Shown piece after piece: positions 3,177-35,621 of a DNA stretch of 64,000 bases. The first letter of the stretch is position 1. Each line of letters opens with the position of its first letter. The notes below the pieces were generated by a model that made no database searches, had not been told where the DNA came from, and was given only the letters and a program-made list of their open reading frames with translations. The DNA is taken from the sequence record SRR31156797_2770; one strand, written 5' to 3'. The position numbers and the translations under genes were made by a program.

Positions 3177-3953
3177 CTATGGCTTACCAACAAGTTCTGC
3201 TAACAGCTCACTGACTTTAGGCAGTGGCTCGTTTTGTAGCGCTGCTACGATTTTTGAACCGATCACTACCCCCTCACACACACTGGCAAAGCGCTGCACA
3301 TCTGCGTGGGTCGAGACCCCGAAACCAGCTAATACTGGAATCGGACTTTTTTCCGAAATGGCTTGCAAATGCTGATCCAGCTGTACGTTGTATTGGCGAT
3401 TTTCTCCAGTGACACCGTTCACTGTCACAGCATAAACGAATCCTTCCGCGTCTTCGATCAGCGTCTGAATTCTGTCTGGAGGACTGGTCAAAGAGACCAG
3501 TGTGATCAGCGCGAGATCCGCCGCATCAAAAGTAGGCGTTACTAGTGATCGATGTTCAAAAGGTAAATCTGGAATAATCAACCCTTTCACATTTGTCGCT
3601 TTTAACTCATTTGCTAACTGTTCAATCCCATAATGAAAGAATGAATTGGCATACCCCATCAATACCAGTGGAACCTCGGAATGGATGGTTTGCAGCAAAG
3701 CAATGATCTTTTTTAAAGTGGTCCCATTGGCTAATGCCTGCATTCCAGCTGCTTGGATGACGGGTCCATCTGCGACTGGGTCTGAAAAGGGCACGCCGAT
3801 TTCAATGGCCGCTGCGCCATGTGTCGTCAACAGCTCGATTTCTGCTGGCAGGCGTTCCAGTCCGTTGGCACCCGCCATAATATAAGGAACAAATAGTGGC
3901 TTGCCTTGTTTTTGGCGCTCCTTTAGTTTCATCGTCAATGTTTTGCTGGTCAT
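3177..3953 (-). CDS. trpA: Tryptophan synthase alpha chain
   Basis: [23 protein letters not shown] and GVVIGS motifs. Confidence 0.97.
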
Positions 3954-5143
3954 TTCGCTGCTCCTTTCCGGTCTTTGATTTGTTGAACATCTTTGTCCCC
4001 TCGCCCAGACAAGCAGATCACTAAGCGTTCTTCGGGTGTCATGATTGGGGCTAGCTTTAGGGCATAGGCAACGGCATGAGCACTTTCCAAAGCAGGAATA
4101 ATGCCTTCGATTTGAGACAAGAGATAAAAGGCGTCAACGGCTTCTTCATCAGTGACAGCGAAATACTCCGCTCGCTCAATCTCCTTCAAGTAAGAATGCT
4201 CGGGACCGACCCCTGGATAATCCAAACCAGCTGAAATCGAATAAGGTTCGATCACTTGCCCATCATCGTCTTGCAGCAGATACATTTTGGTACCATGTAA
4301 AATACCGATACTGCCTTTCGTCAAGGTCGCCGCATGCTCAGTAGTATCCACACCTTTCCCAGCTGCTTCAACGCCAATCAAACGAACGGTCTGATCATCG
4401 ATAAAAGGGTAAAACATTCCCATCGCATTGCTGCCGCCGCCAACACAAGCAACGACTGTCGTCGGTAGTCGTCCTTCTTTTTCTAATAGTTGCCGTCGTG
4501 TCTCACTGCCAATCACACTTTGAAAATCTCGAACGATCTCTGGAAAAGGATGCGGACCGAGTACGGAACCCATCACGTAATGGGTGTCCTCGACGGTTGC
4601 GACCCAGTAACGCAGCGCTTCATTGACAGCATCTTTCAATGTATGATTGCCTGAAGTGACTGAAACCACTTTTGCTCCCAACAATTCCATTCGAAAGACG
4701 TTTAGTGCTTGCCGCTGAACATCTACCGCACCCATAAAAATCGTGCATTCCATACCGAACAACGCGGCCGCAGTCGCTGTGGCGACGCCATGCTGTCCAG
4801 CACCGGTCTCCGCTACCACTTTCTTTTTCCCCATCCGCTTTGCTAATAACACTTGCCCTAGCGCATTATTGATTTTATGGGCGCCCGTATGATTCAAATC
4901 TTCTCGCTTCAGATAAATTTTGGCACCGCCTAAGTGTTGTGACAAGCGCTGTGCATGATAAAGGGGGGTCTCTCTTCCTACATACTCTTGCAAATATTCC
5001 TGTAATTCTGCTTGAAAACTTGCGTCCGCTTGTGCTTCACGATAGACAGTTTCCAATTGCTTGACTGCATACATCAATGTCTCTGGCACAAACAGCCCGC
5101 CAAAAGAACCATAAAAACCTGCTTCTGTGGGGTATTGGGTCAT
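3950..5143 (-). CDS. trpB: Tryptophan synthase beta chain
   Basis: [16 protein letters not shown] (PLP lysine), [20 protein letters not shown]. Confidence 0.98.
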
Positions 5144-5787
5144 TTTATCTTCTCCTTTACTAAGTAAATAAATTGTTCGATTTTCCGACTGTCTTTCTTC
5201 CCCTGGGTTTCAACGCCTGAAGAAACATCGACAGCATAAGGCCTAAAAAGTTGGATCGCCTCTTCTACATTTTCCGCGTGCAAACCGCCAGCAATAAAAA
5301 ATCGCTCAGACAACGGCAACGGTTTTCTCGCCGCTTTTTGCCAATCAAAGGATTGGCCGTTGCCGCCAGCATAAGGGTGATCTCTTACTGGAGCGTCCAA
5401 TAACCCAAAATCTGCATCGCAGCTTAGGAAATCTTGTTCTAAAGTCTCTGCTTCTCCATCAAAGGCTTGGATCACTGCGATCTTTTGATGCGCAAAAATG
5501 CCTGTCTGGATGGCTGTTTGCAAAGATGGCAGAACCTTTCCATGGAGCTGAATCGCTGTCAGCTGGGCGGCTTGAATTGCCGCTTGCACTTCTTCAAAAC
5601 TTGGAGAAACGAAAACCCCGACTTTCCCTACATTTTGGGGTACTTGCTCCGTTATCTTGCGGACTTGTGTCGGATCGATTCTCCGACGGCTTTCGGCAAA
5701 AACAAAGCCAAGGTAATCTGCTCCTGCACTGATGGCAGTTTCGACATGCAGCCGTTCGGTGAGTCCACAAATTTTCACTTTGGTCAT
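5140..5787 (-). CDS. trpF: Phosphoribosylanthranilate isomerase
   Basis: [20 protein letters not shown] and VDVSSGVE motifs. Confidence 0.95.
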
Positions 5788-6542
5788 CGGCGGCTCACCT
5801 GCAAATCTGCAGCTGTTTCAGCAATTCGATTGCTTCTCATCAACGTTTCTCCAACGAGGACTCCATGATAAAACGGTGCAAGCTGCAGCACATCGGAGGC
5901 AGTTCGAATACCAGATTCACTGATGTAAACCGCCTCTGACGGCTGAGGTGCTAAAGCAACACTGATATCCAAGGAAACGTCAAAGGTTTTTAGGTCACGA
6001 TTGTTGACGCCGATGATTTTGGCCTCTAAGGCTTGGGCTTGTTGAAATTCAGCCGCATTATGAGTCTCAACGAGTACTTCCAACCCTAGTGCTATTGCCT
6101 CTTGATGAAGTATGGCTAAGCGTTCTGGTTTTAAAGCGGCCACGATCAATAAAACAATACTGGCACCCGCATTCTTGGCGCGAATCAATTGTTTTCTGTC
6201 GATAATAAAGTCTTTGCATAGTATAGGCACCGAAACGGCATTACTGACTGCTTCAAGATCTGCCAGCGAGCCTTTAAAAAACTGCTGGTCGGTCAAAACG
6301 GAAATCCCGCTGACACCCGCGGCTTCATAAGCTTGCGCTTGTGTGACTGGGTCGATTCCTTGGTTGATGTCTCCTTTTGAGGGTGAAGCACGCTTGATTT
6401 CAGCAATGAGGTGCATTTTTTGTGGTCGGTCCTTGACTTGCTGATAAAATGATGGACGTTTCGTTACGACCTTTTCGATTTCTTGTGGCATCGCGGCAAC
6501 TTCTTCAACTTTTTTCTGGATGATCGTTTCTAAAAAATCCAT
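5784..6542 (-). CDS. trpC: Indole-3-glycerol phosphate synthase
   Basis: IAEIKRASPSKG, KDFIID, GVNNRDL and SESGI motifs. Confidence 0.97.
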   Translation of the reverse strand: MDFLETIIQKKVEEVAAMPQEIEKVVTKRPSFYQQVKDRPQKMHLIAEIKRASPSKGDINQGIDPVTQAQAYEAAGVSGISVLTDQQFFKGSLADLEAVSNAVSVPILCKDFIIDRKQLIRAKNAGASIVLLIVAALKPERLAILHQEAIALGLEVLVETHNAAEFQQAQALEAKIIGVNNRDLKTFDVSLDISVALAPQPSEAVYISESGIRTASDVLQLAPFYHGVLVGETLMRSNRIAETAADLQVSRR

Positions 6543-6568
6543 GATTCTCCTCCTTACAGCTTTCGTAG

Positions 6569-7603
6569 TTAATGGCTATTTGACTGACGAATCAGCATCT
6601 GCAGTTTGTCGTAGGCCGCGCCCGAAGCGATACACGCTCGTGCCATCGCAAAGCCTTCCGCTAGGGTGGCGGCTTTGCCGTTGGTATAAAAGCCTAACCC
6701 TGCATTTAAGACCACTGTCTCTAGATAAACGGAAGGGTGATTTTTCAAAACTGCTGTTAAGATCGCGGCGTTTTGAGCCGCATCTCCGCCGACGATCGCC
6801 TCGATCGGTGCTGGCGTAAAGCCATACGCTTGCGGATCCAAAGAAAAATTCCTCACCTTTCCTTCGTGATAAAAACTGATCGCCGTTTCACCTGCCAAAT
6901 TGGCTTCATCCATCCCATTACATCCATGGATCACCATTGCTCGTTGCCGACCAAGACTGCCTAACGCCTGAGCGGTGTCTACCAAGCTCTCGCCAGCGTA
7001 AGTACCGATCAGTTGCGTAGTCAACGGAACAGGATTGATCAAAGGGCCTAATAGATTAAAAATCGTTGGTGTCGCTAATTCTTGCCGTATTTTCATCACT
7101 GCTTTCATGCCCGGATGCAACGACGGGGCGAAGAGAAAAGCGATGCCGACTGTCGCTAATAGATCGGCGATTTTTTCTGGTGATGCTTGAATTGCCACCC
7201 CCAAGCATGCTAAGACATCGGCACTGCCTGAACGACTAGAGATACTGCGATTGCCGTGTTTTGCCATCGTGATTCCCCCAGCTGCTAAAACGAAGGCAGC
7301 CGTAGTGGAGACATTAAAACTATTGGCGTGGTCGCCACCAGTGCCGCAATTATCCATGGTGTCTCCTCCTTCATAAGGAATGGTCACGGCATGCTCTAAC
7401 ATAATTTCTGCTAAAGCAGTCAATTCGGCAGCTGTGATGCCGTTGATCTTCATCGCAACTAATGCTGCGCCCAATTGACTTTCTGAAAACACCCCGCTTA
7501 AAATTCCTTGAGCAAATTGACGCATCTCCTGATAACTTAAATGACGGCCATTAAATAATTGCTGAGTGATTTGTTGCGGCGGCTGCTTTTTTAGTGCTTG
7601 CAT
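6569..7603 (-). CDS. trpD: Anthranilate phosphoribosyltransferase
   Basis: DNCGTGGD, KHGNRSISSRSGSAD and TIFNLLGPL motifs. Confidence 0.97.
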   Translation of the reverse strand: MQALKKQPPQQITQQLFNGRHLSYQEMRQFAQGILSGVFSESQLGAALVAMKINGITAAELTALAEIMLEHAVTIPYEGGDTMDNCGTGGDHANSFNVSTTAAFVLAAGGITMAKHGNRSISSRSGSADVLACLGVAIQASPEKIADLLATVGIAFLFAPSLHPGMKAVMKIRQELATPTIFNLLGPLINPVPLTTQLIGTYAGESLVDTAQALGSLGRQRAMVIHGCNGMDEANLAGETAISFYHEGKVRNFSLDPQAYGFTPAPIEAIVGGDAAQNAAILTAVLKNHPSVYLETVVLNAGLGFYTNGKAATLAEGFAMARACIASGAAYDKLQMLIRQSNSH

Positions 7604-8199
7604 TAAAGATTCCTCCTTTTTTCATCTTGTGTTTTTTCTGTATTATCCGAGACGAGTTTAAGAAACTGTTCTATGAAAAATGCCCCCTCGTTTGTTCCCA
7701 TTGATTCTGGATGGAATTGGAGTCCTACGATTGGTTTTTCGCGATGCTGAATCGCCATGATGATCCCTTCTGTTTCAGCCAACACCTCAAATTCCGCTGA
7801 AAGTGTCGCTGGCTCAATGACAAGCGAGTGATAGCGCATGACAGTCATGTCTCCTAGGTAGGTTTCGAATACGCCTTTTTTCTGATACGTAAGGGTCGAT
7901 TGCTTGCCGTGCATAATAGCTGGTGCTTGGACCACTTTGGCACCAAACGCTTCACCAATGGCTTGATGACCTAAGCAGATGCCTAAAAGCGGCTTGCTAT
8001 CTTGGTATGTTTTGATCAAAGAAATCATGAATTCTGCCTCTTCGGGACGGCCTGGTCCCGGGGAAAAAATGATGGCATCTGCTTCTTTTGCAACAATAAA
8101 AAGCTCTGGATCGTCATTTCGCAAGACGATCGTATCCGCTGGACATTGCTGGACTAAGTTATACGTAAAGGAATCATAATTATCGACGAGTAAAATCAT
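7603..8199 (-). CDS. trpG: Anthranilate synthase component II (glutamine amidotransferase)
   Basis: DNYDSFT, SPGPG, GICLGHQ, RYHSL, QFHPES; start moved to ATG 8199, which has a GGAGGT RBS. Confidence 0.95.
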   Translation of the reverse strand: MILLVDNYDSFTYNLVQQCPADTIVLRNDDPELFIVAKEADAIIFSPGPGRPEEAEFMISLIKTYQDSKPLLGICLGHQAIGEAFGAKVVQAPAIMHGKQSTLTYQKKGVFETYLGDMTVMRYHSLVIEPATLSAEFEVLAETEGIIMAIQHREKPIVGLQFHPESMGTNEGAFFIEQFLKLVSDNTEKTQDEKRRNL

Positions 8200-9586
8200 T
8201 GGCTGACACCTCCAATAGTGCTTTGGCTTTGTGTAATGTTTCTTGGTATTCAGATGAAGGATCAGAATCATAAACGATCCCCGCCCCTGCTTGGACATAA
8301 GCGATCTCGTCTTTCAATACCAATGTCCGAATCCCGATGGCAAAATCCGCTTGATCATTTCGTGAAAAATAACCAACTGCACCAGCATAGACCCCTCTTC
8401 GAACAGCTTCCCACTGATAGATGCGAGTCATGGCACGAATCTTTGGTGCCCCGCTGACCGTGCCTGCTGGCAGGGTTGCTTTCAAGGCATCCATTGCCGT
8501 CACAACTGCTCTGCGCTTGGCAGCCACTACCGAAACGATGTGCATGACATAGCGGTATTTCTCGATCACCATGTATAAAGGAACATGAACCGTCCCATGT
8601 TCAGCGATCCGCCCTAAATCATTGCGCCCAAGATCGATAAGCATCTGATGCTCTGCACGTTCTTTTTCATCTGCCAATAGTTCATTTGCCAAAGCTTCGT
8701 CTTCTGCTTTGGTTGCACCTCGTTTGCGGGTACCAGCGATCGGATTCGTGGTGATTTCGTCGCCTTGAACGCGAATCAGGCTTTCAGGTGAGCTACCAAT
8801 CACTTTAAATCCGTGATCGAAATCAAGATAATAGAGATACGCGGAAGGATTTGTCACTCGTAGTTTGCGGTAATAGTCAAAGGGCTCTTGTTTAAATGAC
8901 GCTTTCAGACGTTGCGAAGGAACGACTTGGAACATGTCTCCCGCCGTAATTCGGGCTTTCGCCTCTTGAACGATCGCTTCATAGGCTTGCTGTGTGACAT
9001 TGCTGGTAAAATGCAGTTTTTCATTTGACAATACACGGGTCTCAGCGGCGACTGGTGTCCTTAACTGCTGCTTCACTGCTTGCATTACCTGCCCCATCTC
9101 GACGGTTCCTCTTTGGCTATAGCAATTTTCAAGAATGATCGTTAAAGTTTCCGTCTGATGGTCAAAAACGAGAAAAGTTTCGAAAAGCCAAAAGGCCATA
9201 TCAGGCACTTGCAATTCATCTGCGGGCAGTTGTCCGATGTCTTCATAGCAAGCGGCGATATCATAGCCCGCATACCCGATAGCCCCACTTTGCAGCGGTA
9301 GATTCGGTAAAGCGCTAATTTCCTTTTTGACTACATACCCTTCCATTTCTTTTAAAGGGTCCTGACACGGGTACTTGTTGACCGTTTTTTTCAAAAGATC
9401 CTCCACCTGAAAAACACCATCCTTAAAGGTCATTTTCTGAACGGGATCAAAGGTAAGGATCGAATAGCGTCCGGTATCTTCTTCTCTGGGAATACTTTCC
9501 AATAAACATTTATGCGCCCCTTGAATCCGTAAAAAAACTGAGACAGGTGTCAAACAATCGCTGTTGATTCGTTCCATTCGATACAT
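8180..9586 (-). CDS. trpE: Anthranilate synthase component I
   Basis: LLES, NPSAY, PIAGTRKRG, EHQMLIDLGRND, PAGTVSGAPK; start moved to ATG 9586, which has an AAGGAG RBS. Confidence 0.96.
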   Translation of the reverse strand: MYRMERINSDCLTPVSVFLRIQGAHKCLLESIPREEDTGRYSILTFDPVQKMTFKDGVFQVEDLLKKTVNKYPCQDPLKEMEGYVVKKEISALPNLPLQSGAIGYAGYDIAACYEDIGQLPADELQVPDMAFWLFETFLVFDHQTETLTIILENCYSQRGTVEMGQVMQAVKQQLRTPVAAETRVLSNEKLHFTSNVTQQAYEAIVQEAKARITAGDMFQVVPSQRLKASFKQEPFDYYRKLRVTNPSAYLYYLDFDHGFKVIGSSPESLIRVQGDEITTNPIAGTRKRGATKAEDEALANELLADEKERAEHQMLIDLGRNDLGRIAEHGTVHVPLYMVIEKYRYVMHIVSVVAAKRRAVVTAMDALKATLPAGTVSGAPKIRAMTRIYQWEAVRRGVYAGAVGYFSRNDQADFAIGIRTLVLKDEIAYVQAGAGIVYDSDPSSEYQETLHKAKALLEVSANDFTRR

Positions 9587-9604
9587 AAGCTGCTCCTTTC
9601 TTTG

Positions 9605-9885
9605 TAAACAAAAAGCCCTCAAGCAAACGCCATAAAAACGTCTGCTTGAGGGCGAATGATCGCGGTACCACCTCAATTGAAGTTGCCCAAATAAACAACT
9701 TCTTCTCTATCAACCGTCTAACAACGGTCTTCCTCTATAACGGGAGTTCCCGCATTTTCCTACTGCCAAAAAAGGGTTCAAAAAATGATCGGCTAAGGCC
9801 ATTTCCTTGATTTCTTGGTGCCGGACTCTCATCACCGCCGACTTTCTGTAACCAAAAAAGACTCAAGTACTTCTCTTAGTTTGAT
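9605..9885 (-). ncRNA. T-box riboswitch 2 (proximal), Trp specifier
   Basis: T-box AATTGAGGTGGTACCGCG (9661-9678 rc); terminator GCCCTCAAGCA/TGCTTGAGGGC with U tract; GAAA-TGG specifier at 9799-9801; ends approximate. Confidence 0.92.
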
Positions 9886-29769: not shown

Positions 29770-30048
29770 CACTTTGATCCAGCACCAGACTTTAAATAGA
29801 AACCCTCTGATTTCAAAATACGCCAAGTGTTTGCGTGCGCTGAATCAGAGGGCTTTTATTGTTATTCTAGTTCTTTTTTCACGGAAGTCGCCCCTCTCCT
29901 TCATTGCTCAAACGATTCTATCGAAATAAAAGAGCAGTAATTGGTTTTCTTCAATCGACAGACGCCCTTCTAAATAACCTTCCTTTTTTCACCGAATTTA
30001 CTCTTTGTAAGCAAGATAGTTTGCTGAAAATAAAAAAAATGGTATTTT

Positions 30049-30070
30049 TATTTTATCAAGTGATAAAATA
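30049..30070. promoter_or_regulatory. Palindromic operator (FhtR-like) between the -10 and the RBS
   Basis: TATTTTATCA-AG-TGATAAAATA, a perfect 10-2-10 inverted repeat; core TTATCAAGTGATAA. Confidence 0.8.
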
Positions 30071-30085
30071 ATAGGAGGAATCGTT

Positions 30086-31150
30086 ATGTTTTTGGCAATC
30101 AATGAAATACGCCATTCCAAATTGCGTTACGCCCTAGTCACAGGGGTCATGTTTTTAATCGCCTATCTGGTCTTTTTTTTAACTGGCTTAGCGTATGGGT
30201 TGGCTCAAGATAATCGGATGGCGGTCGACAAATGGGAGGCAGATCAAATTTTGTTGACTGAAGAAGCAAATGATAATTTAAACATGTCGATGCTTCCTCG
30301 CAGTCTTTATGACGAAGTCGATGCACCAGAAAAAGCTGTTTTGGCGCAAACCGCTGGGGTAGTGACTAAAGAAGATAACGGTGAAAAAGTCGATGTCACC
30401 TTTTTCGGCATTGATCCAGATCAATTTCTAGCACCAAATATTATCGATGGCGAGATGTTTGCGTCAGATGATGAAGCGGTCGCAGACAGCAGCATTGAGG
30501 AAGAATACGGGATTTCCATTGGTGACACCATCAAATTAGCCGGCAGTGACAAAAAATTGAAAATCGTCGGTTTTACAGATAACGCCCGCTTCAGTGTTGC
30601 TCCGGTCCTCTACACCTCGATCGGTGCCTATCAAGAAATTCGTTTTGAAAAAGAAGATGATTCAGAAAATGCCCGTATCAACGCGATCGTAACTCGTGGC
30701 AAAATCAAAGAAGTGCCAGATGATCTAGTCGCTACGGATATCAGCAAATTTATTAATGAATTGCCTGGTTACAACGCACAAGTGCTGACCTTTGGCTTTA
30801 TGATCGGGTTCTTGATCGTGATCGCTGCCATCGTTATCGGTATTTTTATCTATGTGTTAACGATGCAAAAATCAGAAATTTTCGGTGTCATGAAAGCCCA
30901 AGGGATCTCTAGCCACTACATTGCTTTTTCGGTGATTGCCCAAACGTTCTTATTGGCAACCTCGGGTGTTTTGATCGGTGGGTTGGCAACGATCGGTACC
31001 GCCCTCGTGTTACCTGCGGCAGTGCCATTCCAAATCAATCTATTATTCTTTGCTAGTATCAGTGTAATGATGATTCTGATCGCGATGCTAGGTGCTTTCT
31101 TCTCGGTGCGAACGATTGTAAAAATCGACCCATTGAAAGCAATCGGATAG
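30086..31150 (+). CDS. hrtB: MacB/FtsX-type ABC permease, HrtB-like
   Basis: MFLAINEIRHSKLRY N-terminus; one TM, a large extracellular domain, then 3 TM; FGVMKAQG and KIDPLKAIG. Confidence 0.75.
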   Translation: MFLAINEIRHSKLRYALVTGVMFLIAYLVFFLTGLAYGLAQDNRMAVDKWEADQILLTEEANDNLNMSMLPRSLYDEVDAPEKAVLAQTAGVVTKEDNGEKVDVTFFGIDPDQFLAPNIIDGEMFASDDEAVADSSIEEEYGISIGDTIKLAGSDKKLKIVGFTDNARFSVAPVLYTSIGAYQEIRFEKEDDSENARINAIVTRGKIKEVPDDLVATDISKFINELPGYNAQVLTFGFMIGFLIVIAAIVIGIFIYVLTMQKSEIFGVMKAQGISSHYIAFSVIAQTFLLATSGVLIGGLATIGTALVLPAAVPFQINLLFFASISVMMILIAMLGAFFSVRTIVKIDPLKAIG

Positions 31151-31161
31151 GAGGAAAAAAC

Positions 31162-31878
31162 ATGAGTGCCATTGAATTCAAACAAGTCAAAAAATCATTT
31201 AAAGATGGGGACGCGACGATTGAAGCCTTGAAAGAAACCAACTTTTCGGTAGAAAAAGGCGAATTTGTCGCCATCATCGGTCCTTCCGGCTCTGGGAAAA
31301 GTACCTTTCTGACGATTGCCGGTGGTCTACAAGCTCCCTCTGAAGGCGAAGTATTTATCAATGACGAACCCTTTAGTAAACAAAAAGAAAAGCAACGGGC
31401 AAAAACTCGATTCAAAAAGATCGGCTTTATTTTACAAGCTTCCAACCTTGTCCCTTTTTTGACGGTCAAAAAGCAACTTCAATTGGTGGATAAGGTCAGC
31501 AAAGAACCCCAAGAGCAATCAGCTACTGAATTGTTTGAACAACTAGGGATTGAAAAGCTGCAGAACAAATACCCCGATGAACTATCTGGTGGTGAAAGGC
31601 AGCGTGTGGCTATTGCCCGAGCGCTCTATCATGATCCCACCATCATTTTGGCAGATGAACCAACGGCGAGTCTTGATTCAAAAAAAGCCGTCGAAGTCGT
31701 CAAAATCTTAGCAAAAGAAACCAAAGAAAAACAAAAAGCCACCATTATGGTGACCCATGATACCCGTTTGACAGATTATTGTGATCGGGTCCTCGTCATG
31801 AAGGATGGCGTTTTAGAAGAAAAAGAACACACGAAAAAAGAAGCCGAATCAAGTGATTCGCAGAAGGAGCAAGCATGA
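31162..31878 (+). CDS. hrtA: ABC ATP-binding protein, HrtA-like
   Basis: GPSGSGKST, GFILQASNLVPFL, LSGGERQR and DEPTASLD motifs. Confidence 0.75.
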   Translation: MSAIEFKQVKKSFKDGDATIEALKETNFSVEKGEFVAIIGPSGSGKSTFLTIAGGLQAPSEGEVFINDEPFSKQKEKQRAKTRFKKIGFILQASNLVPFLTVKKQLQLVDKVSKEPQEQSATELFEQLGIEKLQNKYPDELSGGERQRVAIARALYHDPTIILADEPTASLDSKKAVEVVKILAKETKEKQKATIMVTHDTRLTDYCDRVLVMKDGVLEEKEHTKKEAESSDSQKEQA

Positions 31879-33362
31879 AAAAAATTATTGTTGTCGGTGC
31901 GGGCGTGTCAGGATTAGCTGCTGCTGTCCGTTTGCAAAAACTTGGCTATGACGTCACCCTCTACGAAAAAGAAGGTCAACCTGGGGGCAAAATGAATCAG
32001 ATCAAGGAAAACGGCTTTACCTTTGATGTGGGACCCACCATCGTGATGATGCCTGAAATTTATCGTGAAGTGTTTGAATTTGCTGGCGTTGATCCGAATG
32101 ACTATATTCCTATGGAGAAAGTCGATCCGATGCTGCAGCTGTATTTTGCTCAAGGCGAACCGCTGACCTTCTCAAACGACTTAGTAGAATTGACCAAAAC
32201 GCTAGAAGCGATCTCGGAAGAAGATGCTCAAGGCTATTTTGCCTTTTTAGCAGATATTTACAAACGCTATGTGATCGCCAAAGAGTCCTTCATCACCAAG
32301 TCGTTTCGGACATGGCGAGACTTTTACAATCCCAAATCATTATGGGCAGGGTTAAAGCTGCGAACGTTTAGTGACGCCTACTCTTCCATTTCTAAATTTG
32401 TCAAAGATGATCGCCTGCGAAAATCATTGGCGTTTCAAACCTTGTATATCGGTGTCTCCCCTTACCAAGGGCCGTCCCTTTATACCATCATCCCTATGAT
32501 CGAGTTGATGTATGGGGTCTATTTCATCAAAGGCGGCATGTATACATTAGCCACTGGTATGGCACGTTTGTTCCAAGAATTAGGCGGAACGATCCATTAC
32601 AATACCCCAATCGATGAATTATTGATCGAAAACAAGCAAACCAAAGGCGTTCGTGTCAATGGAGAAACGATCACCGCAGATGCCGTGATTTGTGCGGCTG
32701 ATTTTCCTTATGCTATGGAAAGCTTGATTCCTGATGAATCAAAACGCGGCAAATACACCAATCAAAAAATCGCTTCGATGGATTACTCTTGTTCTTGTTT
32801 CTTGCTTTATTTAGGACTGGACAAAAAATATGAAGATAGCGCACTCCATAGCATTTATTTTGCCAATGATTTCAAACGCAATGTAGACGATCTTTTCGAG
32901 GCTGGCAAGCTGCCAGAAGATCCTTCCTTCTACTTGTATCGTCCAACCCTGAAAGATGCTTCCTTAGCACCTGATGGTCAAGAAGGTCTTTATGTATTAG
33001 TCCCAGTACCTGAATTATCTAAATTTGATCAATGGACGGATGAAACGATCCAAAGCTACCGCCAGCAGATCATTGGATTATTAAAAGAAAAAACGATCTT
33101 TACGGATATCGATGAACACATCGTGTATGAAAAAATGTATACGCCAGATACGTTCAATGATCGGTTCAATGCCTACAACGGTGCGACATTTGGCTTGAAA
33201 CCAACCTTGTCGCAAAGCAATTACTATCGTCCCCATAATAAATTTGATTATGCAGAAGGCCTATACTTCTGCGGCAGCAGTACGCATCCGGGAGCGGGTG
33301 TGCCAATCGTGATGCAAAGTGCCAAGTTAGCTGTGGAGGAGTTGTTAAAAGATGACCGTTAA
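31875..33362 (+). CDS. crtN: 4,4'-diapophytoene desaturase (CrtI/CrtN family)
   Basis: GAGVSG FAD motif, FDVGPTIVMMP, FQTLYIGVSP and HPGAGVPIV. Confidence 0.9.
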   Translation: MKKIIVVGAGVSGLAAAVRLQKLGYDVTLYEKEGQPGGKMNQIKENGFTFDVGPTIVMMPEIYREVFEFAGVDPNDYIPMEKVDPMLQLYFAQGEPLTFSNDLVELTKTLEAISEEDAQGYFAFLADIYKRYVIAKESFITKSFRTWRDFYNPKSLWAGLKLRTFSDAYSSISKFVKDDRLRKSLAFQTLYIGVSPYQGPSLYTIIPMIELMYGVYFIKGGMYTLATGMARLFQELGGTIHYNTPIDELLIENKQTKGVRVNGETITADAVICAADFPYAMESLIPDESKRGKYTNQKIASMDYSCSCFLLYLGLDKKYEDSALHSIYFANDFKRNVDDLFEAGKLPEDPSFYLYRPTLKDASLAPDGQEGLYVLVPVPELSKFDQWTDETIQSYRQQIIGLLKEKTIFTDIDEHIVYEKMYTPDTFNDRFNAYNGATFGLKPTLSQSNYYRPHNKFDYAEGLYFCGSSTHPGAGVPIVMQSAKLAVEELLKDDR

Positions 33363-34275
33363 ATCATTAAGCGTCTTTGATGAATACGACAACGATTTTT
33401 TATACTGTGAGGCCATCATAAAAAAGCATTCGAAAAACTTTCATACCGCCTTTTCTCAATTGCCAAAAGACAAAGCACGCGCCGTCTATGCCGTCTACGC
33501 CTTTTGCCGACGTGCCGATGATGCCGTCGATGAAAAGCAAGACCCATTGTTGATCGAAGCCATGAAAAAACGCTTGGAAGAAATACAAGAACTATTAACC
33601 GGCGATGCGATCGACTTGCCGCAAGCCATCAAGGAAGAAGATCCTGATGAAGCCATTTGGCGGGCATTGACCCTTTCTTTCCAACAGTTTGACCTACAGT
33701 TTCAACCCTTTTTCGATCTATTGGTGGGACAAAAACAAGACCTTGACTTCCAGCAGCCCACCTCTGAAAAAGAGCTTTCCGACTATAGTTACTACGTAGC
33801 CGGCAGTGTGGGTCTGATGCTCTTGCCGATTCTCTCACAAACAGCCGCTGCGATTCAAGAGCCCGCCATAAAATTGGGTGAAGCGATGCAACGCACCAAT
33901 ATTTTACGTGATATTGGCGAGGATCTGCGAATGGGCCGCATCTATTTGCCACAAACGGTCTTGGCGCAATTCAACCTTTCGCGAGAGGCATTAGCAGCTG
34001 GCAATCAAAACCAGCAGTTTATCGAGATGTGGGAACACGAAGCGCAACTTGCTGAGACGCTTTATCAGGAATCTTTTGTAATGATGCCGCAAATCGATGA
34101 AGATTGCCGTGAAGCTCTATTAGCAGCTGCTTTGATCTATCGGGAAATCTTGACTGTGATCCGCAAAAACAACTATCAAGTATTTGCTGAAAAAACAGCG
34201 GTACCGAAACAACGGAAAATCCAACTTTTGTTTACCGCGAAAAAAATGCTTCGTCAGGAACGTTGGGAGGGCTGA
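33352..34275 (+). CDS. crtM: Dehydrosqualene (diapophytoene) synthase
   Basis: YAFCRRADDAVD, YYVAGSVG and NILRDIGED..GRIYLP motifs. Confidence 0.9.
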   Translation: MTVKSLSVFDEYDNDFLYCEAIIKKHSKNFHTAFSQLPKDKARAVYAVYAFCRRADDAVDEKQDPLLIEAMKKRLEEIQELLTGDAIDLPQAIKEEDPDEAIWRALTLSFQQFDLQFQPFFDLLVGQKQDLDFQQPTSEKELSDYSYYVAGSVGLMLLPILSQTAAAIQEPAIKLGEAMQRTNILRDIGEDLRMGRIYLPQTVLAQFNLSREALAAGNQNQQFIEMWEHEAQLAETLYQESFVMMPQIDEDCREALLAAALIYREILTVIRKNNYQVFAEKTAVPKQRKIQLLFTAKKMLRQERWEG

Positions 34276-34277
34276 CT

Positions 34278-34838
34278 TTGAACTTGCGAGAAAAAATATT
34301 ACGAGTCGCAGAAAACCTGTTTATGCAGCAGGGGTATCAAGCAACTTCTACTAGACAGATCGCAGAAGCCGTCGGCATCACCCAGCCCAATCTTTATTAT
34401 CACTTCGAAGGCAAAGAAGCCATCTATTATGAAGTGATGGTCTCTTTGGCACAAGAGGTTTCTGGAAAATTAAATCAGACTGTTGAAGATACTTCCTTGA
34501 CGATCTCTGAAAAAATCTTAAACATGTTTCTTTTTTTAAGAAGTCGGCATCGCATCAATTTTTATATGATGATGCACGACATTCAGCATACCGTTTCTGA
34601 GGACACTTCAAAAAAACTGTACTTGCTTTGGCGGAAAAATTACAAAGAACCGTTTCTTGACTTGTTCCGTCGCAGTGATTCCAATCTTCGTTCGGATGTC
34701 GATCCAGAATTTGTTACCAGCCAGTTGTTAGTGCTGATGGCGGCTCACTTGGACTCACCGGGAAAAGAAGACAAAATGCCAGAAGCGATCGATTTGTTTT
34801 TATTCGGTGCACTAGGCAGTGGGCCAATTGCGAAATAG
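34278..34838 (+). CDS. TetR-family regulator, FhtR-like
   Basis: LFMQQGYQATSTRQIA..ITQPNLYYHF HTH; TTG start with a GGGAGG RBS inside the end of crtM. Confidence 0.88.
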   Translation: MNLREKILRVAENLFMQQGYQATSTRQIAEAVGITQPNLYYHFEGKEAIYYEVMVSLAQEVSGKLNQTVEDTSLTISEKILNMFLFLRSRHRINFYMMMHDIQHTVSEDTSKKLYLLWRKNYKEPFLDLFRRSDSNLRSDVDPEFVTSQLLVLMAAHLDSPGKEDKMPEAIDLFLFGALGSGPIAK

Positions 34839-34937
34839 CGAGTCCAATTGGGTAATGCGCGAGAAAAATTATTAGACGAATTTCTGACAATCGCGTACAC
34901 TGATCCTGTAAACTGGAACATAAAAGGATGGATGTAC

Positions 34938-35516
34938 ATGTCAAAAAATCGAATCGAAGCCTTTACGGATGCGGTCATTGCGATCGTAATGACCTTATTA
35001 GTACTGGAATTGCACCAGCCCGAAGGCGATACATTTGCTTCTTTTTTAGGAGTGGAACAGCAATTTATTATTTATTTGATCAGCTTTGTGATGTTAGCGA
35101 TCTACTGGAACAATCACCATCATCTATTTCAAGTAGTATCTAAAATTGACGGTTGGACCTTGTGGGCGAATCATTTATTGATCCTGGCACTAACCCTCTT
35201 TCCTTTTGTAACGTCATGGGTCAGTCGTTATCCAGTCGCTCTTGCCCCTCAGCTGCTATACGGGTCTGTCATTTTATTGACGGATTTCAGCTATTTCCTT
35301 GTAGGAAAGTCCTTGGTGCGTGCCAACCCTGACAATCAAGCCATCGTAGAACTGTTTCGCGGATACAAGAAACTCTACTTTACGTTGTTTATCAACGTGC
35401 TGGCATTGCTCCTCGGCTGGCTGGTCCATCCACTACTTATCATCACGCTGGATAGTCTCGTGCTATTATTGTGGGTGATCCCTGAGAAAAAAGTAGAAAC
35501 CTTTTTAAAACAATAA
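34938..35516 (+). CDS. TMEM175 family potassium channel
   Basis: RIEAFTDAVIAIVMTLLVL and YWNNHH motifs. Confidence 0.9.
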   Translation: MSKNRIEAFTDAVIAIVMTLLVLELHQPEGDTFASFLGVEQQFIIYLISFVMLAIYWNNHHHLFQVVSKIDGWTLWANHLLILALTLFPFVTSWVSRYPVALAPQLLYGSVILLTDFSYFLVGKSLVRANPDNQAIVELFRGYKKLYFTLFINVLALLLGWLVHPLLIITLDSLVLLLWVIPEKKVETFLKQ

Positions 35517-35621
35517 AAACACTTGCGTCCTTCTCCTGATGGATAACTGCGCAAAAGCAGAACAATCGGCTGCTTTTGCGCAATCATCCATCGCTTTTAG
35601 GAGAAGGACGCAAGTGTTTTT
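35515..35621. terminator. Long nested hairpin acting as bidirectional terminator
   Basis: 23-bp perfect outer arms (35515-35537 and 35599-35621) enclosing 7-bp and 13-bp inner stems. Confidence 0.75.

Follow-up and report, generated by a model that had tools for sequence, protein, structure and literature searches.

The stretch of DNA analysed here, 64,000 nucleotides (nt) from sequence record SRR31156797_2770 and hereafter called the window, carries a unit of five genes encoding an HrtBA-type export pump, the carotenoid enzymes CrtN and CrtM, and a TetR repressor of the family of FhtR, the heme-binding regulator of Enterococcus faecalis (Table 1). The coordinates of the open reading frames (ORFs), all on the plus strand, agree with the gaps and overlaps of +11, -4, -11 and +2 nt given in a preliminary description of the window. 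The TetR gene starts with a TTG codon behind GGAGGG, as read from the sequence. By profile searches CrtN and CrtM belong to the phytoene desaturase and squalene/phytoene synthase families, respectively. That their product is a C30 and not a C40 carotenoid is taken from reports on the enterococcal pigment (PMC3374389, PMC6256589), and a CrtN homologue has been reported in E. casseliflavus (PMC3374389). The window TetR has counterparts with 98% identity in E. casseliflavus and 97% in E. innesii, and the gene layout is the same in both. The window belongs to the E. casseliflavus group, and the nearest whole genome, G001, was used as its stand-in. In the E. innesii record, the ATPase gene appears as two overlapping partial matches (L002:4886-5598), suggesting a frameshift in the record.

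Table 1 Features of the pump and carotenoid locus in the window (aa, amino acids)
Feature	Position	Strand	Basis or remark
AGCA element at the Spx activation position, about -45 to -42	30010..30013	+	33 nt before predicted -10; start site predicted
Likely promoter: weak -35 TTGCTG, extended -10 TG-n-TATTTT	30021..30048	+	Read from sequence
Predicted operator, perfect 11-2-11 palindrome	30048..30071	.	Core TTATCAAGTGATAA at 30053-30066, over predicted start site
HrtB-like permease (MacB_PCD + FtsX, Pfam), 354 aa	30086..31150	+	ORF list
HrtA-like ABC ATPase, 238 aa	31162..31878	+	Family searches; 59% to FhtR-locus ATPase
crtN, diapophytoene desaturase, 495 aa	31875..33362	+	TIGR02734, 467 bits vs cut-off 238
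crtM, diapophytoene synthase, 307 aa	33352..34275	+	PF00494, E 1e-70
FhtR-family TetR repressor, 186 aa	34278..34838	+	PF00440; Tyr122 = FhtR Tyr132
TMEM175-like potassium channel gene	34938..35516	+	PF06736; co-transcription possible; own weak promoter possible
Long hairpin between convergent genes, likely transcript end	35515..35621	.	-68.6 kcal/mol, z -13, 0/200 shuffles

The five genes are likely to be read as one transcript. As the preliminary description held, there is no strong internal terminator: the window contains seven terminator-like sites compared with 7.7 in shuffled sequences, and the two on the plus strand within the operon have stems of 5-6 pairs only. A consensus scan found no promoter-like site on the plus strand of hrtA, from which a separate crtNM promoter, the alternative that had been named, would have to act. 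Contigs from RNA libraries give a weak hint at the promoter, with X14 (30066-35521) and X18 (30074-33956 and 34072-35610) starting just behind the promoter; these two runs may stem from one campaign, and the RNA runs were used as contigs, without depth. The RNA-library contigs X10 and X1 cross the flanks of the locus, as DNA would.

The palindrome ahead of hrtB had been described as a perfect 10-2-10 repeat; it is perfect, and its arms are one pair longer. Three other perfect palindromes occur in the window (arms of at least 10 nt, spacer of at most 4 nt), all ending in terminator-like T/A runs. The core is identical at 12 of 14 positions to the printed P1 operator of E. faecalis FhtR, TTATCAATCGATAA, P2 being its mirror form (PMC7858072), just as had been stated. 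The core is also the sole exact match in the window to TTATCAANNGATAA. With two mismatches allowed, this sequence matches 15 times against a mean of 10.1, which is not above chance; support for the operator therefore comes from its position and conservation and not from its count. One copy is present at the window promoter and two, 26 nt apart, in genome G002. In the consensus scan the promoter does not reach the threshold; relatives keep a TG-n-TA-type element in the corresponding position, and the position of the box as well.

E. faecalis FhtR binds this operator motif in vitro, binds heme and is released by heme, with Tyr132 as the heme ligand (PMC7858072). The window TetR shares 36% identity with FhtR across 119 aa. 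Its Tyr122, proposed as the counterpart of the tyrosine ligand of FhtR, aligns directly on Tyr132, and the claimed likeness of the helix-turn-helix is borne out by a recognition stretch that is near-invariant between the two proteins. G002 has the two operators, a TetR with Tyr at position 132 and hrtBA behind, so that this TetR was taken as FhtR. It is the best match of the window TetR (E 1.7e-21), and FhtR in turn finds the protein of G001 (E 1.2e-21; next match 4.2e-7). Members of the family score 208-245 bits with the family profile and other TetRs at most 61. Of 55 family rows, 54 have the ligand tyrosine (56 rows were aligned, and one unrelated TetR was excluded); the exception is a Phe in G071. 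An FhtR-family gene was found in 37 of 38 sampled genomes of another bacterial family (f7), a wider distribution than that given in the FhtR paper (PMC7858072). A structure model of the window TetR (predicted local distance difference test, pLDDT, 89.6) has only TetR proteins as its top fold matches, a generic result that carries no ligand information. The only solved-structure match of the window permease was Corynebacterium diphtheriae HrtB (7W78, E 3.5e-24), and the permease is 43% identical to the FhtR-linked permease of G002. One genus (G068 L212, G074 L213, G071 L211) has boxed hrtBA-tetR loci without a crtN match, and it is here that the Phe replaces the ligand Tyr.

A comparison of synteny across pigmented enterococci, which the preliminary description had called for, showed that, among 47 crtN units of 46 Enterococcaceae genomes, 43 are headed by the box TTATCRNNYGATAA. 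A crtN match was present in 48 of 134 genomes of this family; a frameshifted crtN in G088 (a 77%-complete genome; box present) and a fragment in G056 were excluded. All 14 units with crtN behind hrtA start with the exact box (11 were flagged by script and three, with a 4-nt overlap, were assigned from coordinates). Where crtN does not follow hrtA, a box lies within 150 nt in 29 of 33 units (26 exact, three with one mismatch), and four units have none. For hrtB, which has a match in 127 genomes, the exact box precedes 26 of the best 30. As background, 307 other ORFs of at least 150 aa from 40 loci had no exact box and two with one mismatch. Seven of eight box-less units came from genomes, belonging to four genera, whose best family-profile score was at most 61 bits, with G011 as the exception; these co-occurrence counts include kin, which are not independent. 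Exact sites are few, with only 2 to 10 per genome in seven genomes and two in the 4.0 Mb of G001. The second site of G001, at the start of tgt, was considered as a regulon site and set aside as probably due to chance, and several other genome-wide matches fall inside genes.

The association extends to other families. Among 401 sampled Lactobacillales genomes, 85 have a crtN match and 140 a match to the TetR profile. Outside Enterococcaceae, the box heads the crtN unit in 18 of 22 cases where the genome has a member of this TetR family and in none of 17 where it has not. Of these 39 loci, 20 were chosen before the TetR search and 19 after it, 11 of the latter for a TetR near crtN, which inflates the positive count; in the first 20 loci alone, the box was present in 4 of 5 with the family and 0 of 15 without. 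An exact box of G221 lies inside the end of crtM and was left out of the count. On the evidence of sequence, box, pump, crtNM and TetR family form a regulon and not a chance neighbourhood, because the box follows crtN even apart from the pump and its absence mostly coincides with that of the TetR family.

The order of the genes varies. The window has box-hrtBA-crtNM-tetR; G008, G129, G181 and G254 have box-crtNM-tetR; G223 and G137 have box-crtNM-hrtBA with a divergent tetR; and G036 and G101 have separate boxed units. Both partial arrangements exist, hrtBA-tetR without crtNM (G011, Shouchella with box-hrtBA-tetR and no crtNM in the locus, and others) and crtNM-tetR without hrtBA (G008, G129 and others). 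The most telling case is G140, which has tetR-box-hrtBA-crtNM as one unit. In trees, the regulator and the permease of this genome each fall with their E. faecalis counterparts, and G140 thus shows the same coupling of pump and pigment on the branch with proven heme sensing. In loci L246-L251, hrtBA, an OhrR-like MarR gene, crtN, crtM and a crtP-like gene form one unit that has no FhtR box, and a common upstream motif may be its operator. Loci L253-L256 have hrtB-hrtA-crtN, with neither crtM in the fetched stretch nor a box or TetR family member.

A second conserved feature lies upstream of the box. AGC[AG] occurs exactly 43 nt before it in 34 of 42 boxed hrtB promoters (46 examined), against a base rate of 0.009 per position. 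The Spx element of Bacillus subtilis trxB is AGCA at -45 to -42 (PMC2801614). AGC[AG] is also found at the DUF2177 operons, and at tspO promoters it keeps, as judged by eye, its distance to the apparent -10 whereas the box shifts. The four FhtR-clade promoters that were checked lack it. G001 has three genes of the ArsC/Spx family above the cut-off, an assignment at the level of the family. In E. gilvus, the pigment is induced aerobically (review PMC7524341) and spx has been named as a regulator of carotenoid synthesis (PMC6256589). Spx probably adds an oxidative-stress input at the window promoter.

Taking together the gene layout, the box, its co-occurrence with the TetR, the conserved tyrosine and the AGCA spacing, we infer that one shared FhtR-family repressor very probably controls both pump and crtNM through the box. 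In yellow enterococci and their relatives, the common box and the FhtR-family repressor suggest that heme, or a molecule like it, probably induces pigment synthesis and the pump in concert. A heme-type ligand is probable, and we lean, with slightly less assurance, towards heme itself as the signal here. The overall reading that we favour, on balance, is joint induction of export and carotenoid synthesis when heme or a close tetrapyrrole releases an FhtR-family repressor, with Spx adding an oxidative-stress input. Binding, repression, ligand, pump cargo and Spx effect would then fit together as follows. A TetR dimer would bind the palindrome over the start site and hold down the expression of the pump genes, of crtN and crtM and, by negative autoregulation, of the tetR gene. 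Once accumulated in the cell, heme or a metal porphyrin close to it would bind the repressor via Tyr122 and release it. The HrtBA-type pump would extract the tetrapyrrole from the membrane, and the product of CrtN and CrtM, the first two carotenoid enzymes, would shield the same membrane from tetrapyrrole-caused oxidation. Spx, acting through the upstream AGCA, would raise the promoter under oxidative stress, so that full output would need both signals. The window operon would represent one of the layouts of a wider regulon, whose crtNM and hrtBA genes are each boxed even when far apart.

Several observations weigh against the heme reading. In a quick tree, FhtR belongs to a clade of nine rows with a support of 100, and the window TetR lies outside it. 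As many g13 genomes carry both lineages, the window protein is regarded as FhtR-family and not as FhtR itself. Orthology with FhtR, which had been named as a check, is therefore upheld for family membership, given the reciprocal best match and the tyrosine, and not for placement inside the FhtR clade, to which the window TetR is sister. The literature searched contains no experiment on the window TetR's clade. The permeases likewise form two clades with a support of 99 each, and that of the window does not group with E. faecalis HrtB; it is read as a paralogue of the latter and not as an orthologue. The earlier proposal that pigment synthesis sits inside a heme-detoxification unit is supported in part: strongly, by the box survey, for the common FhtR-family repressor, and less so for heme as the inducer. 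The window permease has Gln232 at the position of the iron ligand Glu219 of C. diphtheriae HrtB. However, the E. faecalis pump also has Gln there, and the E219Q variant of C. diphtheriae HrtB still rescues growth (PMC9271180), so that this feature does not discriminate.

The genomic context of heme adds to these points. G001 has a second hrtBA (L161:4003-6600) that is closer to the E. faecalis pump, is followed by a gene for an HrtR-like TetR, and has two copies of a different palindrome at its promoter. This TetR matches the HrtR structure 3VOK by profile (E 5e-25) and has a His at the position of His72, a ligand residue of HrtR. The cytochrome bd gene cydA is present in G001, G060 and G065 and missing from G036 and G008, which keep the regulon. 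No ferrochelatase was found in these five genomes, and any heme must therefore come from outside. No box was found at crtPQO or cydAB of G001. Bacteria of the E. casseliflavus type are yellow on ordinary media (PMC3374389), so that repression must be leaky or traces of the inducer suffice. The TetR is present and crtN box-less in G011, G251, G368, G275 and G311, and six genomes of another family link hrtBA and crtNM with an OhrR-like gene and no box. Finally, most stand-alone crtN promoters lack AGCA at the spacing seen before hrtB, with only 8 of 25 having it (at 44-45 nt), and some genes found in or next to the regulon, those for UvdE, a B12-binding protein, DUF2177 and DUF1295, point to light stress.

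Since photoprotection genes stand under the box, a photosensitiser or light is a serious rival to heme as the signal. In this alternative, the repressor and the regulon are the same, and the signal is photo-oxidative. It could be a porphyrin with zinc or without metal, a product of chlorophyll breakdown or of lipid oxidation, or light perceived via a bound pigment or partner protein, with the pump exporting the compound concerned. A DUF2177, Dak2-DegV and DUF1295 operon lies under the box, and so, in other families, do uvdE-DUF1722 and a gene for a B12-binding protein. The box was found at tspO in 5 of 30 tspO loci, and at no tspO of the window's own genus. TspO binds porphyrins, so that its box also speaks for the heme reading. 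Next to one mobile version of the boxed block are a photolyase gene and an HrtR-like unit. Genes for DUF2177 and DUF1295 proteins also appear in a table of the singlet-oxygen response of Chlamydomonas (PMC4067076). The set of genes reads as a defence against porphyrin or light damage, and fits heme, but other tetrapyrroles at least equally well. Further points in favour of a photo-oxidative signal are that the HrtR-linked second hrtBA, possibly the dedicated heme exporter of its species, could already take care of heme, and that the linkage of pump and crtNM recurs with an OhrR-like regulator. Heme itself is a poor photosensitiser, since iron quenches the triplet states of porphyrins. However, the iron-ligand tyrosine is kept nearly always and would not be needed for a metal-free ligand, and the FhtR-clade protein of G140 heads crtNM too. 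Moreover, the window TetR has no light-sensing or B12-binding domain (Pfam), and a B12-binding gene next to that of the TetR is confined to another family and does not occur in enterococcal loci. We therefore consider a photo-oxidative signal unlikely, though worth keeping in view.

Some of the loci just mentioned deserve a description of their own. In L178, L179, L150, L221, L224 and L225, a block comprises photolyase, HrtR-like tetR, hrtBA, DUF2871 and a boxed DUF2177-Dak2/DegV-DUF1295-hrtBA-crtNM-tetR unit. The block, from photolyase to tetR, is near-identical across several genera and often lies beside insertion-sequence genes, with crtNM lost or broken in some; it looks like a mobile photoprotection island. 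In L321-L328, crtNM units contain or adjoin an FhtR-family tetR that is followed by genes for a stand-alone B12-binding protein of 213 aa and a LolE-like permease. The B12-binding protein is a possible light-sensing partner of the repressor. The permease beside the TetR (386 aa, L322-L328) was considered as a third HrtB lineage and rejected, its matches being LolE, LolF and YtrF. A 268-aa membrane protein that recurs under the box and adjoins crtNM (L162:3809-4615, L258, L259, L319) had no match in Pfam or NCBIfam.

According to a second alternative, crtNM is a chance passenger behind hrtBA with an own or leaky promoter, and oxygen and Spx alone set the level of pigment. The constitutive-looking yellow colour, the aerobic induction in E. 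gilvus, the Spx-type element and the lack of a box at the later steps crtPQO would agree with such an arrangement. It is improbable, as crtN has a box of its own in 29 of the 33 loci where it is apart from the pump and no longer has one where the TetR has disappeared, and as hrtA, free of promoter-like sites on the plus strand, overlaps crtN by 4 nt. That a global regulator of the Fur or PerR type binds the palindrome and the TetR is an unrelated neighbour, as the GATAA half-sites in the core and the five genomes with TetR and no box at crtN might suggest, is very improbable, because the two exact sites of G001 are too few for a global regulator, the box tracks the presence of the TetR, FhtR binds the motif in vitro, and the recognition stretch is near-invariant.

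Returning to the shared FhtR-family repressor, a broader and speculative picture may be drawn. At its root, the family could be a sensor of tetrapyrrole danger for photoprotection across Lactobacillales, which in E. faecalis would have shrunk to the control of heme efflux, without pigment. In enterococci associated with plants and insects, the sister clade would respond to porphyrins that act as photosensitisers or to products of chlorophyll breakdown (and, in some lineages, to light via the adjacent B12-binding protein) and form an AND gate with Spx that leads to export, carotenoid, TspO and UV repair. We hold this picture to be rather unlikely; if true, a tetrapyrrole-danger sensor would add a new class to the known carotenoid regulators.

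Downstream of the operon, no stable hairpin separates the TetR gene from the TMEM175-like gene (z -1.0), and the first strong hairpin 3′ of the operon is the one after the latter gene. RNA-library contig X14, which spans both genes, hints weakly at their co-transcription. A weak promoter may lie ahead of the TMEM175-like gene, near 34874-34902. This gene adjoins the locus in L001, L002 and L180, and not in loci of other genera. The near-perfect hairpin at 35515-35621, 107 nt long, exceeds the length of a plain terminator and may be a small repeat element; in one RNA-library contig it sits inverted. Elsewhere in the window, a complete tryptophan synthesis operon, for which only ORF starts were considered, is found on the minus strand at 3177-9676.

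A regulon of the FhtR family that joins carotenoid synthesis to HrtBA-type export appears to be real, conserved and so far undescribed. No paper on heme- or TetR-controlled crtNM was found in the literature searched, which was judged mostly from listings and covered neither the pigment studies of E. gilvus nor Fig. S7 on FhtR homologues. The main text of the FhtR paper does not contain the word carotenoid (PMC7858072), and the part covered of a report linking E. faecium hrtAB to a TetR mentions neither carotenoid nor pigment (PMC11282960). Since the E. gilvus studies are the likeliest place for such control to be described and lie outside this coverage, newness is probable and not certain. In the literature covered, the control of carotenoid synthesis in lactic acid bacteria consists of aerobic induction and a mention of Spx, and a candidate repressor and operator can now be added. 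FhtR is widened from the pump regulator of a single species to a family, with a membrane-protection regulon, across the sampled Lactobacillales. Pigment, a trait used in the identification of enterococcal species, is predicted to depend on the medium, and some pale species with crtNM are predicted to be inducible. The regulon might also offer a simple route to higher C30 carotenoid yield in food-grade strains.

The same two enzymes occur in crtNM of E. gilvus and Lactiplantibacillus plantarum and in crtOPQMN of Staphylococcus aureus, all with the C30 product 4,4'-diaponeurosporene. S. aureus crtOPQMN is under SigB control. For E. gilvus, the known control is aerobic induction, with spx named, and the portion of the literature covered describes no repressor or operator. 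In non-phototrophs, CarH/LitR (B12) and CrtR (MarR) resemble the window system in that carotenoid genes are under the control of a repressor and repair genes are often close by (PMC6739363). Unlike CarH/LitR, the window regulator is a TetR without a B12 domain, and its regulon includes an efflux pump. The Spx-activated promoters of B. subtilis trxB and nfrA share with the window AGCA at -45 to -42, an A/T-rich stretch after it and a poor -35 (PMC2801614); the window, where the position of AGCA is counted from a predicted -10, adds a repressor site over the start point. HrtR-HrtBA of Lactococcus lactis is likewise an autoregulated TetR in an hrtBA operon that is released by heme (according to PMC7858072). 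However, the window TetR belongs to a different subfamily, and HrtR (3VOK) was not among its best 60 structure matches. The nearest known system is FhtR-HrtBA of E. faecalis (Saillant et al. 2021, PMC7858072), with which the window shares the TetR family, the operator motif, the ligand tyrosine, a box before hrtBA and reciprocal best matches. The FhtR gene is monocistronic, constitutive and ahead of hrtBA, whereas the window TetR gene lies inside its own boxed operon, 2 nt after crtM. Compared with FhtR-HrtBA, the window has its regulator and its pump both in sister clades and one operator in place of two, and it adds the AGCA element and, within the unit itself, crtNM.

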